This document shows, piece after piece, positions 42,335-48,854 of a stretch of DNA of 64,000 nucleotides. A program made the translations under genes and the position numbers. The stretch is from Candidatus Levybacteria bacterium RIFCSPHIGHO2_02_FULL_40_18 (GTDB lineage Bacteria > Patescibacteriota > Microgenomatia > Levybacterales > GWA1-39-11). Location: the NCBI GenBank assembly GCA_001782235.1, contig MFOC01000007.1, positions 86,799 to 150,798 on the forward strand, given 5' to 3'. Within the stretch, counting starts at the first letter, position 1. Every line of letters begins with the position of its first letter. The notes under the pieces are model-generated. The model was not told the origin of the DNA. It saw only the letters and a list, made by a program, of their open reading frames with translations, and did not search any database.

Positions 42335-42483
42335 CAATCTAATTCCCTAGTTAGATCATTTTTTTTACACACAAAAACAAAGTGCCCAACTAATTTTTTC
42401 GTCCCATCCGCCAACCGGCGGACTATTACCGCAAAACGAGGCTAAAACATCGATTGCCATAGTTTGATATACAACTTGATAGT

Positions 42484-42535
42484 TGACACGGCTGATATAG
42501 TGTTCTACTATTTTAGTTGACACTATATCTAGTAG
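42484..42535 (+). promoter_or_regulatory. nrdR-nrdJ promoter (TTGACA-17-TACTAT) with NrdR-box-like palindromes
   Basis: ACACTATATCTAGTAG (42520-42535) matches the NrdR box consensus acaCwAtATaTwGtgt. A half-box ...GATATAGTGT lies at 42494-42503. The repeat TAGTTGACAC appears twice. Confidence 0.45.
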
Positions 42536-42565
42536 TTTGCACCTTGAACAACCAGCCCAATTAAG

Positions 42566-42706: not shown

Positions 42707-43156
42707 ATGCAGTGTCCTTATTGTAAAAGTGAAGATTCTGAAGTTGTTGAAACAAGGGTCTCGGATGATGGAACAAATATAAGGCGCAGAAGAAATTGCC
42801 TTTCATGCGGCAAGCGTTATACAACTTACGAGCGGATAGAAAACATCACTCTTATTGTCAAGAAAAAGGACGGAAGGCGCGAGCAATTTGATCGAGAGAA
42901 ACTTCGGCAAGGACTCATGAAAGCCTGCGAGAAGACAACGGTGTCACTTGATGCGATTAATAATATAGTAGACGAGGTTGAAAGAGAGTTAATATCTGGC
43001 GAGTCGGTTGAAATAGAAGCAAAGAAAATTGGTCAGATGGTTGCTCAAAAACTTAAGAAGCTTGACAAAGTAGCATACATAAGGTTTTCAAGCGTCTTCA
43101 AGAGATTCGTAGATCTTGAGGACTTTGAGAAAGAATTAAAAAAACTTATCAAATAA
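42707..43156 (+). CDS. nrdR: transcriptional repressor NrdR
   Basis: MQCPYCKSEDSEVVETRVSDDGTNIRRRRNCLSCGKRYTTYE zinc ribbon plus ATP-cone. Confidence 0.9.
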   Translation: MQCPYCKSEDSEVVETRVSDDGTNIRRRRNCLSCGKRYTTYERIENITLIVKKKDGRREQFDREKLRQGLMKACEKTTVSLDAINNIVDEVERELISGESVEIEAKKIGQMVAQKLKKLDKVAYIRFSSVFKRFVDLEDFEKELKKLIK

Positions 43157-43168
43157 CCAAATTCTATT

Positions 43169-45673
43169 ATGAAATTACAAGGACTTTCGCAAAAAGTATT
43201 TTTGGATCGCTATTCTTTAAAAGATAAGAAGGGGAAGGCTCTCGAAAAAACCCCTGACCGCATGTGGAGGAGAGTGGCCGCGGCTGTTGCCGGTGTTGAG
43301 ACAACTTCCCAAAATAAGAAGCGCTGGGAAAAGGAATTTTATTCTGCGATGCAGGATTTTAAATATGTTCCCGGAGGAAGAATTTTGGCAGGCGCTGGGA
43401 CCGGTTTTGAAGTTACCTACTATAATTGCTTTGTAATTCCATCCCCCAAAGACTCACGTGAAGGGATTCTTGAAACCCTCAAGCAAATGGTAGAGATTAT
43501 GGCTCGCGGTGGGGGAGTCGGAATAAATCTTTCTTCCTTGCGACCGCGCGGGTTTCGCGTTGAAAAAGTAAACGGCTTCTCTTCAGGTCCCTGCAATTGG
43601 GCAGAACTTTTCTCCGTTGCAACAAAAGACATTATTCAACAGGGAGGTAGTCGCCGAGGGGCATTAATGCTTATGCTCTGGGATTGGCATCCTGATATTG
43701 AAGAATTTATTACTGTTAAACAAGATCTTTCCCGTATAAATGGCGCAAACCTTTCTGTCTGTGTTTCAGATTCTTTCATGGAGCAGGTTGAGCGCGATGG
43801 AGATTGGGACCTTGTCTTTCCGGACAGAAGAGATCCCGAGTATGATACAAAATGGGACGGAGATATATACACATGGCGTGCAATGGGCAAAAAGGTTGTA
43901 AAACATAAGACTATCAAAGCGCGCTACATGTGGGATCTAATTGCCGAGGCCGCCTGGAGATCTGCAGAGCCGGGAGTTGTCTTCATGGAACGATACAATA
44001 AACTGCACAATAATTGGTATTGGAACCGAATTAACTGCGTAAATCCATGCGGAGAGGAGGGCTTGCCGCCGTGGGGAGTTTGCAATCTTGGATCAATTAA
44101 TCTTTCAGCTCTTGTTCACGGCGATAATATTGACAAGAAGGGAAAGTTTGATTTTTCTCTACTTAAGAAAGTCACTCGGGCCGCTGTCCGATTTCAAGAC
44201 AATGTTATTGAAATGGATCCTTATATTTTTGATGGGATCAAAAAGACCCAATATGAAGGAGAAAGAAGAATAGGTCTTGGGACAATGGGTCTTGGAGATG
44301 CTTTGATTAAGCTTCATTTAAGATATGGGTCACCTGAATCCCTTCAGTTTATCGATCGCGTTTATAGAATTATAAGAGACGAGGCGTATAGGACCTCAGT
44401 TGAAATTGGCGCTGAGAAAGGATCTTTTGGAAAGTTTGACAAAAAACTTTATCCTCAGGGCAAGTTCATACAACTGTTGCCTGCTGATATTCAGAATGGA
44501 ATTAAGAAAAAAGGCATTAGAAATTCCATACTTCTTATGCAAGCGCCAACCGGGTCAACATCTCTTCTTGTTAATACAACCTCTGGAATTGAGCCGGTTT
44601 TTGAATTCGAATTTGTGAGGCGCGATAGAATAGGCGAGCATGTTGTCCGCCACTACTTATATGAACAATGGTATAAAAAACACGGCAAGGATATTGAGGC
44701 AGGCAAAATTGAGCGGCCCGATTTCTTTGTGTCGGCGAATGATCTGACGCCAGAAGATCATGTCAGGGCTCAGGCAATAATTCAAAAATATGTTGATGCA
44801 TCTATTTCAAAAACAGTTAATGCGCCTAATGCCCACACAGTTGAAGAAGTAAAAAAGCTTTACAACATGGCATACAAACTTGGTTGCAAAGGCGTTACAT
44901 ATATGAGAGAAGGATCCCGCGCAGGGGTCTTGGAACGCATAGATGATAAGAAGAAGGAAGAAGCTCCAAAGGTTGAAGTAAAAGCCCCACCGGTTACAAA
45001 GAGGCCGCCTGTTATGTATGGCTTGACTTACAAAACCCAAACGCCACTTGGAGACGCATTCATTACTATCAATAAAGATGAAGGAGGAAATCCCTTTGAA
45101 GCCTTTATAACCATTGGCAAATCAGGTTCTGATGTTGCTGCCATGACTGATGCTTTGGGCCGAATGATTTCCCTGACTCTTCGCCTTCAGAGTCCTATAC
45201 CGGCACGAGAACGCGTCAGACAGATTGTCGCACAGCTTTCGGGAATCGGCGGCATGAGAACAATCGGATTTGGAGAAAACAGGGTTCGGTCTGTGCCTGA
45301 TGCTGTAGCAAAAGTTTTAGCAGAGGAATTTGGATTTTCAGTCAACGGGATAGTTCGTGATCTAAAGACTTCGGAAAATACCGTAACAAACGGCCAGGTA
45401 GTTTCGGTATCGAATGGCGCAAACGGAAACGGAATTGTGGCAAAAACAAATGGCATCGTCACAAGTGCCAATGGTATAGCAAGTCCTGCGACTGCGCTAA
45501 ATGAATCGCAAAGCGAGGCGGCAGAGCAGACAGTTGTTATGGAACAATTAAGTATTGGGAGTGAGACCTCGACGCATAGCGCATTTGATTTTTGTCCCTC
45601 ATGCGGAGCAGCAACGCTCGCGCATGAAGAGGGATGCAAAAAATGCTATAGCTGCGGCTATAGTGAATGTTAA
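43169..45673 (+). CDS. nrdJ: class II (adenosylcobalamin-dependent) ribonucleotide reductase NrdJ
   Basis: About 830 aa, N-terminal KVFLDRYSLKD..., active-site Cys/Asn/Glu region (NPCGEEGLPPWGVCNLGSINL), and C-terminal Zn ribbon CPSCGA...CKKCYSCG. It follows nrdR. Confidence 0.9.
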   Translation: MKLQGLSQKVFLDRYSLKDKKGKALEKTPDRMWRRVAAAVAGVETTSQNKKRWEKEFYSAMQDFKYVPGGRILAGAGTGFEVTYYNCFVIPSPKDSREGILETLKQMVEIMARGGGVGINLSSLRPRGFRVEKVNGFSSGPCNWAELFSVATKDIIQQGGSRRGALMLMLWDWHPDIEEFITVKQDLSRINGANLSVCVSDSFMEQVERDGDWDLVFPDRRDPEYDTKWDGDIYTWRAMGKKVVKHKTIKARYMWDLIAEAAWRSAEPGVVFMERYNKLHNNWYWNRINCVNPCGEEGLPPWGVCNLGSINLSALVHGDNIDKKGKFDFSLLKKVTRAAVRFQDNVIEMDPYIFDGIKKTQYEGERRIGLGTMGLGDALIKLHLRYGSPESLQFIDRVYRIIRDEAYRTSVEIGAEKGSFGKFDKKLYPQGKFIQLLPADIQNGIKKKGIRNSILLMQAPTGSTSLLVNTTSGIEPVFEFEFVRRDRIGEHVVRHYLYEQWYKKHGKDIEAGKIERPDFFVSANDLTPEDHVRAQAIIQKYVDASISKTVNAPNAHTVEEVKKLYNMAYKLGCKGVTYMREGSRAGVLERIDDKKKEEAPKVEVKAPPVTKRPPVMYGLTYKTQTPLGDAFITINKDEGGNPFEAFITIGKSGSDVAAMTDALGRMISLTLRLQSPIPARERVRQIVAQLSGIGGMRTIGFGENRVRSVPDAVAKVLAEEFGFSVNGIVRDLKTSENTVTNGQVVSVSNGANGNGIVAKTNGIVTSANGIASPATALNESQSEAAEQTVVMEQLSIGSETSTHSAFDFCPSCGAATLAHEEGCKKCYSCGYSEC

Positions 45674-45689
45674 GTTAGCAATTAGCAAT

Positions 45690-45840
45690 TAGTTTCAAAT
45701 AAGAGTATATATTTGGTAATCGCCGTGAAAGTCGGCGGAACTGCCGGTACTGTAATATCCAGAAAACAATATATACTTTCATCCCCGAGCAGGGTTAAGC
45801 GAAGAAGAATTCCTCTCGGGTTATCGAGAGGTTTTTTTGT
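45690..45840 (+). promoter_or_regulatory. cobalamin-riboswitch-like leader plus intrinsic terminator upstream of the PduO adenosyltransferase gene
   Basis: GGTAATCGCCGTGAAAGTCGGCGGAACTGCCGGTACTGTAAT resembles the AdoCbl aptamer core (GGGAAGCCGGTGAAAATCCGGCGCGGTCCCGCCACTGTAA, from memory). It is followed by the hairpin CCTCTCGGGTTATCGAGAGG plus T7. Confidence 0.45.
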
Positions 45841-45856
45841 GAGCAATAGTTGAACT

Positions 45857-46408
45857 ATGCCTATATATACAAAGACAGGGGATCGCGGAAAAACATCGCT
45901 CTTTTCAGGAAAAAGAGTCTGGAAGCATGATCTCCGTGTCGAAGCATACGGAACCGTTGACGAGCTAAATACTATTTTGGGGCTAGCGCTTGCAGCGCTT
46001 CCTCACAAGAAAAATAAACAAATAGCATATCTTCGTGACTTAATTTTAGAGGTCCAAAAATCCCTTTTTTACATTGGTTCTTATTTTGCCGACCTTCCTG
46101 ACACTCTCGAAGAGATAGATTTGATAGGTAAAACTAATCGGTTCGAAAAAGAAATCGATCTAATGACGAACAAGATGCCAAAGCTTGCGAACTTTATTTT
46201 TCTTGATGGCGGATTGGCCGGGAGTTTTCTCCAGAATGCCCGGGCAATTGCCAGACGGGCAGAAAGGCAAATTGTGAAACTTTCTAAAAAAGAGAAGATA
46301 GATGTGAGACTACTTAAATATATAAACAGGCTCTCCGATTTGTTTTTCACTATGGCGCGTTACGCAAATCATATTGAAGGGAAAAAAGAAAGGATTTGGG
46401 AAAGATAA
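45857..46408 (+). CDS. PduO-type ATP:cob(I)alamin adenosyltransferase
   Basis: MPIYTKTGDRGKTSLFSGKRVWKHDLRVEAYGTVDELN matches the canonical PduO N-terminus. Confidence 0.85.
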   Translation: MPIYTKTGDRGKTSLFSGKRVWKHDLRVEAYGTVDELNTILGLALAALPHKKNKQIAYLRDLILEVQKSLFYIGSYFADLPDTLEEIDLIGKTNRFEKEIDLMTNKMPKLANFIFLDGGLAGSFLQNARAIARRAERQIVKLSKKEKIDVRLLKYINRLSDLFFTMARYANHIEGKKERIWER

Positions 46409-47471
46409 TATGCCAGCAGTTGCCGAAAGAGAAAGGTACGAAATAGTTGGATCTAATGCTTTTAATTTAGAGTACCAAGAAGGTTTACATTCAGAGTCCT
46501 CGATTAAAGAAGATATAATTTCATACTTAGGTGAATATCGTTTTGAAATTCCTAAATACGAATATAGCTTGTTTTTCTCAAGGAATCATAGTGGGACTTC
46601 AATCTTCACCTCTGATGGCGAGACGATGCTTGAAAAATCTCGCAGGGCAATAGCAAAGAAAAAATTACGGCAAGACCCAACGCATCGGGAAGAAAACGAA
46701 ACATTAGGATTAGTAAACCTTGAGAGTCAATTAAAACAGGCAAAAGAAGGCGATACTATTTTCTGGGGGAGTCCGCCTGGGCCAGAAGATGAGGGATATG
46801 GAAACTATGGATTTATTTATAAAGGAAGAATACAGAGTGGGAAAATTCTGATGGCGGCATTGAGAGTCGATAATCCAACAATAGAACAATATAATCGGGC
46901 AATGACCACTTTGACCGGAGCAAGATTTGATCTTCAACATGCCGATGATTTTTTAAGATCCCCGCGCGTTGTAAATAGAGAAGTCTCTGATTCATATATA
47001 GAGCACGTTCTAAAGCAAGGGTTCTCTTATTCTCCAAATCCTGAAAAACAGAAGGATTTTGAGGGGGCCATAAGAATACTTGGGCCTCTTATTGATCGTA
47101 CTATTTTTGCAATACAAAATGGAACCCGCGAAGAAAAACAAAGAACTTTTTATGCTCTTGAAAATTCTGCAATAGAGCTTTGCAACAGTGGTCATGGAAC
47201 TCTTCTTCGCGGGGGATTAGATTATATTATTTTAACACGCAGTTTCGAGCCACCAGTAGCCCGGGGTAGCTGCGGTTCAACCGCAAGTAACATGCTCTTT
47301 TCAGGAGAATCGAGTATAAACGGTATATTAATGCCTGATAAATATGGAGATCGCGAGTTTGAATGTCCTAATTGTCACCAGATAAATGTTCGTCCTATGG
47401 ATCAGCTTCTTGAAAAGTGCCAGCATTGTGGGAGCAGCGCAGTTAGCTGTGAGAGCGATGAATCTTCTTGA
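46374..47471 (+). CDS. hypothetical protein with C-terminal CxxC...CxxC zinc ribbon
   Basis: The likely start is ATG 46410 (MPAVAERERYEIV). C-terminal FECPNCHQINV...KCQHCGSS. No family recognised. Confidence 0.5.
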   Translation: MKGKKKGFGKDNMPAVAERERYEIVGSNAFNLEYQEGLHSESSIKEDIISYLGEYRFEIPKYEYSLFFSRNHSGTSIFTSDGETMLEKSRRAIAKKKLRQDPTHREENETLGLVNLESQLKQAKEGDTIFWGSPPGPEDEGYGNYGFIYKGRIQSGKILMAALRVDNPTIEQYNRAMTTLTGARFDLQHADDFLRSPRVVNREVSDSYIEHVLKQGFSYSPNPEKQKDFEGAIRILGPLIDRTIFAIQNGTREEKQRTFYALENSAIELCNSGHGTLLRGGLDYIILTRSFEPPVARGSCGSTASNMLFSGESSINGILMPDKYGDREFECPNCHQINVRPMDQLLEKCQHCGSSAVSCESDESS

Positions 47472-48461: not shown

Positions 48462-48499
48462 CTTACAAACGCTGCTTCGTGCGAAGCCGCGTTTGACGC

Positions 48500-48854
48500 G
48501 GTGGAGATGGGGGGCTTTGAGCCCCCGTCCAAAAAAGCATCTATAAAAACATCTACAAGCTTATTCAATTATTTATTGTCATCATGCAAACTCCAATTGA
48601 AAGGATTGAACATGACTAAGATTTAAATTGTTCGAACAAAATCTAAATCGGAACTTTGTCTATATCCAAACTTTGTTTATGCCCATATCTGATCGTTTGG
48701 AAAAATCTAGATATGAACACCAGTTTAAGCTACTGCGTAGCTGTAGGCCGGACTAACATTTCTGTTAGCATTTATTTTTGATACATTTTTACGATTAGTA
48801 TCATTATCGGCTTGCAGTTTTTAAAGAGCAATTCTGTCGATGCAATGCATCCCC
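48500..48854 (-). ncRNA. ssrA: tmRNA (ssrA)
   Basis: Minus-strand 5' GGGGATG... pairs with 3' ...CATCTCC-A-CC (tRNA-like acceptor, one G·U). T-arm GGGGG-CTCAAAG-CCCCC. Internal tag ORF with resume codon GCT: A-NRNVSPAYSYAVA-stop(TAA). Located directly downstream of smpB on the same strand. Confidence 0.75.

Follow-up and report, generated by a model that had tools for sequence, protein, structure and literature searches.

Genomic context of the nrdJ-pduO region

Genome-reduced CPR bacteria such as the Levybacteria and their relatives cannot make vitamin B12, yet they rely on a B12-requiring ribonucleotide reductase for their DNA precursors. The locus described here, in which the gene for this reductase (nrdJ) is followed across a gap by a pduO-type adenosyltransferase gene, raises the question of whether the gap holds a cobalamin riboswitch, as an earlier note on this DNA had proposed, and, if so, which genes it would switch and in which direction. 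The window (the whole 64,000-nt stretch of Levybacteria DNA that was analyzed, with a GC content of 40%) contains the following genes around the gap, and the profile matches agree with the identities the earlier note had given to the three named genes:

42707-43156, plus strand, nrdR, repressor of ribonucleotide reductase transcription (TIGR00244, 188 bits; PF22811, PF03477), the first gene of the presumed operon
43169-45673, plus strand, nrdJ, adenosylcobalamin-dependent class II ribonucleotide reductase (TIGR02504, 560 bits, cutoff 400; PF02867, PF00317, PF12637 TSCPD)
45857-46408, plus strand, pduO-type ATP:cob(I)alamin adenosyltransferase (TIGR00636, 158.9 bits; PF01923, 174.6 bits), the putative first regulated gene
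46410-47471, plus strand, gene for a 353-aa protein, starting 1 nt past the pduO stop, the putative second regulated gene

Downstream of the 46410-47471 gene lie a ComF-like gene and, on the opposite strand, a GIY-YIG gene and a tmRNA gene. The closest named relatives of the PduO protein are from Levybacteria, and relatives with a PduO 60-84% identical to that of the window keep the entire row, comprising a DUF5667 gene, nrdR, nrdJ, the gap, pduO, a 46410-47471-type gene, a ComF-like gene, and SmpB/tmRNA. The nrdR-nrdJ-pduO order also occurs in the loci L081-L083, L087, and L090. Two loci with Levybacteria-type gene order and riboswitch (L002 and L005) were deposited as 'uncultured Gammaproteobacteria bacterium' MAGs, a label that is probably a taxonomic mislabel or the result of a mis-binned contig.

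The tmRNA of the window lies at 48499-48854 on the minus strand, and tmRNA (with SmpB in the relatives) is found within 2-3 kb of pduO in Levybacteria loci. A tmRNA also directly follows pduO in several Ignavibacteria/Bacteroidota loci (tmRNA proximity was seen in L008, L009, L014, and L022). This proximity of the two genes may be coincidental.

A class II cobalamin aptamer between nrdJ and pduO

A cmscan search of the whole window at the curated Rfam thresholds returned five matches, namely one tmRNA, three tRNAs, and the AdoCbl-II family RF01689, previously named 'AdoCbl variant'. The last of these lies at 45704-45777 on the plus strand, between nrdJ and pduO, and covers the full model (positions 1-81 of 81; E = 5.3e-06 for 64 kb) with 39.8 bits against a gathering cutoff of 36.5, a margin of 3.3 bits only. 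A sensitive local scan of 701 nt recovered the same match at E = 5.8e-08 and nothing else credible. The covariance-model search that the earlier note had called for thus returns a significant match, and to the class II model; as the scan reports only the best member of clan CL00101, here RF01689, overlapping RF00174 scores are suppressed. The elements of the aptamer and of the hairpin that follows it are:

45704-45777, plus strand, class II cobalamin aptamer (RF01689)
45704-45715 with 45767-45777, plus strand, P1/P3 helix (11 bp, U45714 bulged)
45721-45725 with 45733-45737, plus strand, P4 helix
45740-45741 with 45747-45748, plus strand, P5 helix, closing loop L5 (UGCCG, 45742-45746)
45750-45752 with 45760-45762, plus strand, P6 helix (3 bp and a 7-nt loop)
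45783-45794, plus strand, P13 hairpin (CCC 45783-45785 with GGG 45792-45794), closing loop L13 (CGAGCA, 45786-45791)
U45742-A45791, G45743-C45790, C45744-G45789, and C45745-G45787, plus strand, proposed L5-L13 kissing loop (A45788 bulged)

P1, P4, and P6 are recovered in the minimum free energy (MFE) fold, the whole leader has a z-score of -4.27, and the segment GGTAATCGCCGTGAAAGTCGGCGGAACTGCCGGTACTGTAAT sits at 45715-45756. The RNA has the layout of class II, being devoid of both the large P6 extension (P7-P11) and the P2 loop-stem-loop, with P1 running straight into P3 and with UGCC in L5 complementary to G(A)GCA in L13. Class I (RF00174) does not fit, as the 45750-45766 stretch between P6 and J6/3 leaves no room for a P7-P11 extension. 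The element is an ordinary class II (AdoCbl-II, RF01689) aptamer without a P6 extension. The substitutions relative to the AdoCbl consensus to which the earlier note drew attention are indeed present, but they belong to a regular RF01689 member and do not mark a divergent form of the classical aptamer.

With env8HyCbl (PDB 4FRN; RF01689), the window RNA shares the P3-P6 four-way junction, the T-loop-like L4 (GUGAAAGUC), the short P6 without P7-P11, and an L5-L13 kissing loop in which one L13 nucleotide bulges out, the last being known from env8 (PMC10327014). We regard the element, for which corrinoid binding is predicted, as a regular member of the class II cobalamin riboswitches, and its mechanism has good precedents.

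Copies in related genomes

A first set of relatives, obtained through an alignment-based PduO search of genome contigs, comprised 80 mostly non-CPR loci. In six of these, RF01689 lies directly upstream of pduO (L002, 53 bits; L090, 50.9; L081, 47.9; L005, 43.5; L086, 42.3; L082, 39.4), and in L004 (46.1 bits) it lies 1.3 kb upstream, ahead of two membrane/surface protein genes. Visibly homologous aptamers below the Rfam threshold occur in other relatives, with insertions in P4 (L083) or P6 (L001, ~55 nt). No Rfam cobalamin match was found near pduO in 18 non-CPR loci, and a custom covariance model found the element in all Levybacteria-type loci and in 0 of ~70 non-CPR pduO loci; the pairing of the riboswitch with pduO is therefore lineage-specific, not general.

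A second set came from a pattern scan of a metagenome collection with GCCG..ACTGT, CAGAAAAC, and CGAGC held fixed. It gave 119 contig stretches, of which ~16 GC-rich chance matches were dropped, leaving ~100 distinct copies from Levybacteria and other CPR metagenome contigs. Neither a second riboswitch nor uptake genes were found in the 64-kb window itself (pattern, tblastn, and custom model searches). Some relatives carry a further riboswitch of this family downstream of pduO, ahead of the next gene (L001 4534-4642, L003 4538-4628, L006 4539-4652); L001 and L006 carry two switches per gene row, while L003 has the downstream copy only, with none between nrdJ and pduO.

We also noted a sister group of CPR class II riboswitches (5' GGUUGUGUUUAAGGAA...; L092, L097, L125, L182, L185, L193, L195, L199, L200, L206, and others), in which P1/P3 has an internal loop like that of Cbl-IIa and the ribosome-binding site lies in P13. 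These directly head stand-alone copies of the gene family represented in the window at 46410-47471, and CPR genomes may use two aptamer subtypes for different B12 genes.

Ligand

The J1/3 segment is missing from the window RNA, RF01689 model positions 10-15 being deleted in its alignment, and P1 continues into P3 as a helix of 11 bp from which one U bulges. Within class II, the HyCbl/MeCbl-selective Cbl-IIa type is defined by a J1/3 bulge, and pairing or mismatches at this place define Cbl-IIb, described as specific for AdoCbl (PMC7367189). The window RNA has no bulged J1/3 T-loop to pack against the ligand, in which it differs from Cbl-IIa and from the bulged, ligand-contacting J1/3 of env8HyCbl; a short paired/mismatched segment, as in Cbl-IIb, takes its place. 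Because the continuous P1-P3 resembles Cbl-IIb, the ligand is probably AdoCbl. The AdoCbl riboswitch of the Enterococcus faecalis eut locus, a Cbl-IIb member, has in common with the window the class II core, the paired/mismatched segment in place of J1/3, and the link to both a pathway that depends on AdoCbl and a gene for an adenosyltransferase (PMC7367189, PMC6158498). It differs in that Cbl-IIb is described with a short P6 hairpin extension, whereas the P6 of the window is a plain stem-loop, and the Cbl-IIb assignment is by resemblance only. Sensing of AdoCbl would provide sensible product feedback on the adenosyltransferase; our confidence in AdoCbl as the ligand is moderate.

Secondary structure is an unreliable guide to ligand selectivity in this clan, where selectivity is reported to form a continuum (PMC7367189), and the same mechanism could instead respond to aquo/hydroxocobalamin, methylcobalamin, or corrinoids generally, as in Cbl-IIa, so that the RNA would report total imported corrinoid and not the product of PduO. 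We regard this as possible but on balance doubtful. RF01689 does include the HyCbl/MeCbl-selective env8 type, the P6 of the window (a 3-bp stem with a 7-nt loop) is as described for Cbl-IIa (PMC7367189), and riboswitches of this type also control uptake genes (DUF4430, DUF6580; see below), for which sensing of any corrinoid would be adequate. However, the absent J1/3 bulge is the part of Cbl-IIa that contacts the ligand and fills the adenosyl space, class II members without J1/3 include the AdoCbl-responsive E. faecalis element (PMC6158498), and an adenosyltransferase repressed by its own substrate would be counter-productive.

Probable placement within the nrdJ operon

In the window, the aptamer starts 30 nt past the nrdJ stop codon. 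The corresponding gap is no longer than 24 nt in 21 of 42 loci and no longer than 9 nt in 9, and in 2 loci the aptamer overlaps the end of the open reading frame. Such gaps are too short for a promoter, and transcription of the RNA would therefore either come with the nrdJ message or begin within the nrdJ gene. Since many relatives have the aptamer directly against the nrdJ stop codon, the terminator hairpin downstream of it (described in the next section) is most likely the conditional 3' end of nrdJ and the expression platform of the riboswitch at once. On the simplest reading, the riboswitch looks like an element within the operon, co-transcribed with nrdJ; in the presence of B12 the operon transcript would end after nrdJ, and in its absence polymerase would continue into pduO and the following gene. 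The earlier note had held that a hairpin serving simply as the nrdJ terminator would speak against a riboswitch. The hairpin is likely to be the nrdJ 3' end, but this does not exclude a riboswitch, and the alternative was a false one.

A different placement would make the riboswitch, though real, the 5' leader of a separate pduO transcript, with a promoter of its own in or just after the 3' end of nrdJ. The 30-nt AT-rich spacer at 45674-45703 has room for a -10 element, nrdJ and the aptamer are 150-300 nt apart in some relatives (L083, L086, L127, L169), and riboswitches of this type are also found ahead of stand-alone genes that lack an upstream nrdJ. We nevertheless consider a separate transcript unlikely, given that the short and overlapping gaps counted above would force its start into nrdJ at least, that a consensus scan found no sigma-70-like site on the plus strand across 42969-46490 (CPR promoters may differ from the consensus), and that a terminator scan of the window found no terminator between nrdJ and the aptamer.

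In three relatives (L083 3601-3800, L086 2530-2750, L087 3700-3800), the stretch separating nrdJ from the riboswitch holds 2-4 degenerate repeats, in tandem, of the final ~25 nt of nrdJ (...CGYSEC-stop).

At the other end of the presumed operon, upstream of nrdR (42483-42540, plus strand), we noted two TTGACA-type promoter-like sites and one NrdR-box-like palindrome. The latter (ACACTATATCTAGTAG, 42520-42535) has 3 mismatches to the consensus, and 11 of 100 shuffles do as well. The 3-mismatch search gave one further, chance match inside the riboswitch P1 and a total not above expectation; a possible second, poorer box near 42486-42503 is not significant alone. The layered B12/dNTP-responsive module envisaged by the earlier note is plausible, but its NrdR boxes are poorly supported.

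Expression platform

Two mutually competing structures can be drawn downstream of the aptamer:

45784-45820, plus strand, antiterminator, the predicted ligand-free alternative (CCCGAG 45784-45789 with CUCGGG 45815-45820; AGGG 45791-45794 with UCCU 45811-45814)
45812-45838, plus strand, intrinsic terminator (8-bp stem 45812-45819/45824-45831, loop GUUA, U7 45832-45838)

The terminator scan placed the hairpin CCTCTCGG/GTTA/TCGAGAGG at 45812-45831, followed by seven T at 45832-45838; this is the strong terminator that the earlier note had recognized shortly before the pduO ATG (45857), which lies 18 nt past the T run and 25 nt past the hairpin 3' arm. With an 8-bp stem containing 5 G-C pairs, a 4-nt loop, and the U7 tail, it has the form of an intrinsic terminator, whose activity in the CPR host is predicted. 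The terminator hairpin has a folding energy of -12.3 kcal/mol, P13 alone -2.9, and both together -15.2. For the nascent transcript up to 45823, the MFE structure is the 10-bp antiterminator (-14.1 kcal/mol), the terminator 5' arm being paired with the two halves of P13. The duplex between the P13 segment and the terminator 5' arm reaches -16.0 kcal/mol versus -7.0 for shuffles, and 0 of 300 shuffles are as good.

This complementarity is kept in the relatives. Of the related copies, 38 are of the terminator type, having a terminator no more than 45 nt from P13. In these, the mean folding energy of the terminator hairpins is -13.0 kcal/mol, and the duplex between P13 and the terminator 5' arm averages -15.4 kcal/mol versus -6.4 with shuffled P13 (mean z = -3.7), with no more than 5 of 300 shuffles matching it in 31 of the 38. 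Contiguous complementarity of at least 6 nt between P13 and the terminator arm is seen in 71% of loci versus 2-7% of controls, and compensatory variants of the two segments occur, such as CUCGAG/CUCGAG (L087, L191) and CUUCGAG/CUUGAAG (L107, L130). The terminator of the attenuating layout suggested by the earlier note is tied to the aptamer by a P13/antiterminator arrangement that is conserved and covarying.

A precedent is the repressing corrinoid riboswitch of Priestia megaterium metE, for which P13/antiterminator/terminator logic was shown by compensatory mutagenesis (Kennedy et al. 2023, PMC10327014): the kissing loop keeps P13 closed and the terminator forms, whereas otherwise the free P13 nucleotides sequester the terminator 5' arm (PMC10327014). 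[quoted passage not shown] They differ in that the metE aptamer belongs to class I and sits in the 5' leader of a gene for a B12-independent isozyme, whereas that of the window is class II and lies between two genes, and in that the metE P13 is longer, with an internal loop, and only its 3' side is used, whereas both halves of the 3-bp P13 of the window pair with the terminator arm. As the P13/antiterminator/terminator arrangement of the window matches the metE model, it is best read as a repressing, transcription-terminating switch. The opposite, ON-switch reading was rejected because P13 and the terminator can coexist while P13 and the antiterminator exclude each other.

Under this repressing reading, corrinoid bound to the four-way-junction aptamer would allow L5 (UGCC) to pair with L13 (G-A-GCA), which would lock P13 shut, so that the terminator hairpin forms and transcription stops after nrdJ. 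At low corrinoid levels, P13, a weak stem of 3 bp, would open and its two halves would form the 10-bp antiterminator with the terminator 5' arm, and RNA polymerase would continue into pduO and the next gene, the products of which would supply adenosylcobalamin for NrdJ. We consider it highly probable that this class II corrinoid riboswitch acts as a ligand-dependent transcription terminator (an OFF switch) within an nrdR-nrdJ-pduO-next-gene operon, where we infer co-transcription, the OFF direction, and the ligand.

Control could also be mainly translational, through occlusion of the ribosome-binding site, with the hairpin and U run incidental. Many relatives have the terminator 3' arm (GAGAAGGA) 7-10 nt ahead of the ATG, where it would mask the ribosome-binding site, and ~25 other copies of the family have the classical class II translational design, with an AGGAG site as the P13 3' arm and the ATG 5-8 nt downstream; env8HyCbl likewise differs from the window in its translational control, its P13 holding the ribosome-binding site, whereas the P13 of the window is coupled to an intrinsic terminator. 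For the window, mainly translational control seems improbable, as the hairpin 3' arm ends well before the pduO ATG (the 25 nt given above), contains no Shine-Dalgarno sequence, and is followed by a canonical U7 tail.

Covariation

The earlier note had asked for covariation in orthologous loci, and this we found in P1, P4, P5, P13, and one kissing-loop pair. In a MAFFT alignment of 98 copies onto which the structure of the window was transferred, standard pairs fill 90.1% of cells, versus 72.5% in column shuffles and 28-43% (maximum 42.8%) with the partners slid by 1-3 columns. The covariation score is 0.465 versus 0.147, a value that 0 of 500 shuffles reached, although the sequences are related and the shuffle control is accordingly not a probability. 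P1/P3, P4, P5, and P13 each have pairs changed on both sides across the 98 sequences.

All three pairs of the P13 stem covary (UA/CG/UG; CG/UA; CG/UA/AU), and the hairpin is kept in ~100 copies. P6 and three of the four kissing-loop pairs are invariant because the search pattern fixes them, and they are therefore uninformative. The sole variable kissing-loop pair, which joins the L5 base preceding GCC to the L13 base following GAGC, is UA in 69 copies, UG in 12, AU in 7, and other in 10, and an A in L5 is met by a T in L13 in 9 of 9 copies.

That the resemblance arose by chance and the hairpin is only a constitutive nrdJ terminator is very hard to credit: the score of the window is near the Rfam threshold (39.8 versus 36.5 bits), but homologous elements at the equivalent position reach 53 bits, compensatory variation is extensive in four helices and the kissing loop, and the complementarity between P13 and the terminator is conserved.

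Proposed regulon

Regarded purely as a riboswitch, the element adds little, given that its family, the kissing-loop mechanism, and the P13/antiterminator/terminator logic have been described already and a standard Rfam scan finds it. Of note are its position between nrdJ and pduO, how widely it occurs in CPR genomes, and the protein family of the 46410-47471 gene among those it would regulate. In the literature searched, we found no report of cobalamin riboswitches in CPR/Patescibacteria, and on pduO, nrdJ, and a riboswitch together we found only general reviews.

For the regulon, we clustered the genes downstream of all copies and counted family members among the first three genes after the riboswitch. 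PduO is found 59 times among these and directly follows the riboswitch in 44 related copies; the family of the 46410-47471 protein follows with 57 loci, in 22 of which it is the first gene. DUF4430 proteins were counted 37 times, DUF6580 proteins 22 times, and secreted prenyltransferase/SQHop-like proteins 7 times. CPR bacteria appear, on these gene neighborhoods, to regulate B12 uptake and activation by class II riboswitches, often inside the nrdJ operon.

In some relatives, genes for a DUF4430 protein (transcobalamin beta domain-like) and a DUF6580 protein (like the substrate-binding (S) component of ECF transporters) lie between the riboswitch and pduO (L004 2700-4000; L100, L108, L113, L115, L150, L187, L191). 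The two are likely a corrinoid uptake pair; the 64-kb window contains no homologue of either.

We tentatively propose, while thinking it more speculative than the switch itself, a CPR-specific minimal corrinoid-salvage regulon in which DUF4430 would be a surface binder, DUF6580 a membrane protein, and PduO the adenosyltransferase, with the ~360-aa cytoplasmic protein of the 46410-47471 type as a new partner of PduO in corrinoid processing (for instance a reductase, a protein that strips the beta ligand, or an AdoCbl chaperone to NrdJ), and in which the 3' end of the nrdJ mRNA would be ligand-dependent. If true, a switch between nrdJ and pduO would make the 3' end of the B12-dependent enzyme's own mRNA depend on the ligand.

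The protein encoded after pduO

The gene at 46410-47471 belongs to the family that is, second to PduO, the commonest under this riboswitch type. Its 353-aa product is 100% identical to a hypothetical protein of Candidatus Levybacteria bacterium RIFCSPHIGHO2_02_FULL, in keeping with a CPR/Patescibacteria origin of the window. Apart from a weak C-terminal zinc ribbon, the product matched no Pfam or NCBIfam family and no sequence relative in the PDB. The AlphaFold model is confident (pLDDT of 89.1, pTM of 0.77), and it gave no significant fold match in the PDB. The family is small (145 representatives at E <= 1e-30 among 1.84 billion) and, where the source names an organism, always from CPR.

Membership of the regulon points to an unstudied, CPR-restricted family as a likely B12-handling factor and provides a concrete lead, the 353-aa protein being a reasonable candidate for a corrinoid-handling partner of PduO. 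Three motifs are invariant in the family, namely W-x-SPPGP, GSCG (which contains Cys288), and CPxC..CxxC, and the homologue P0136 is fused to PduO without a break.
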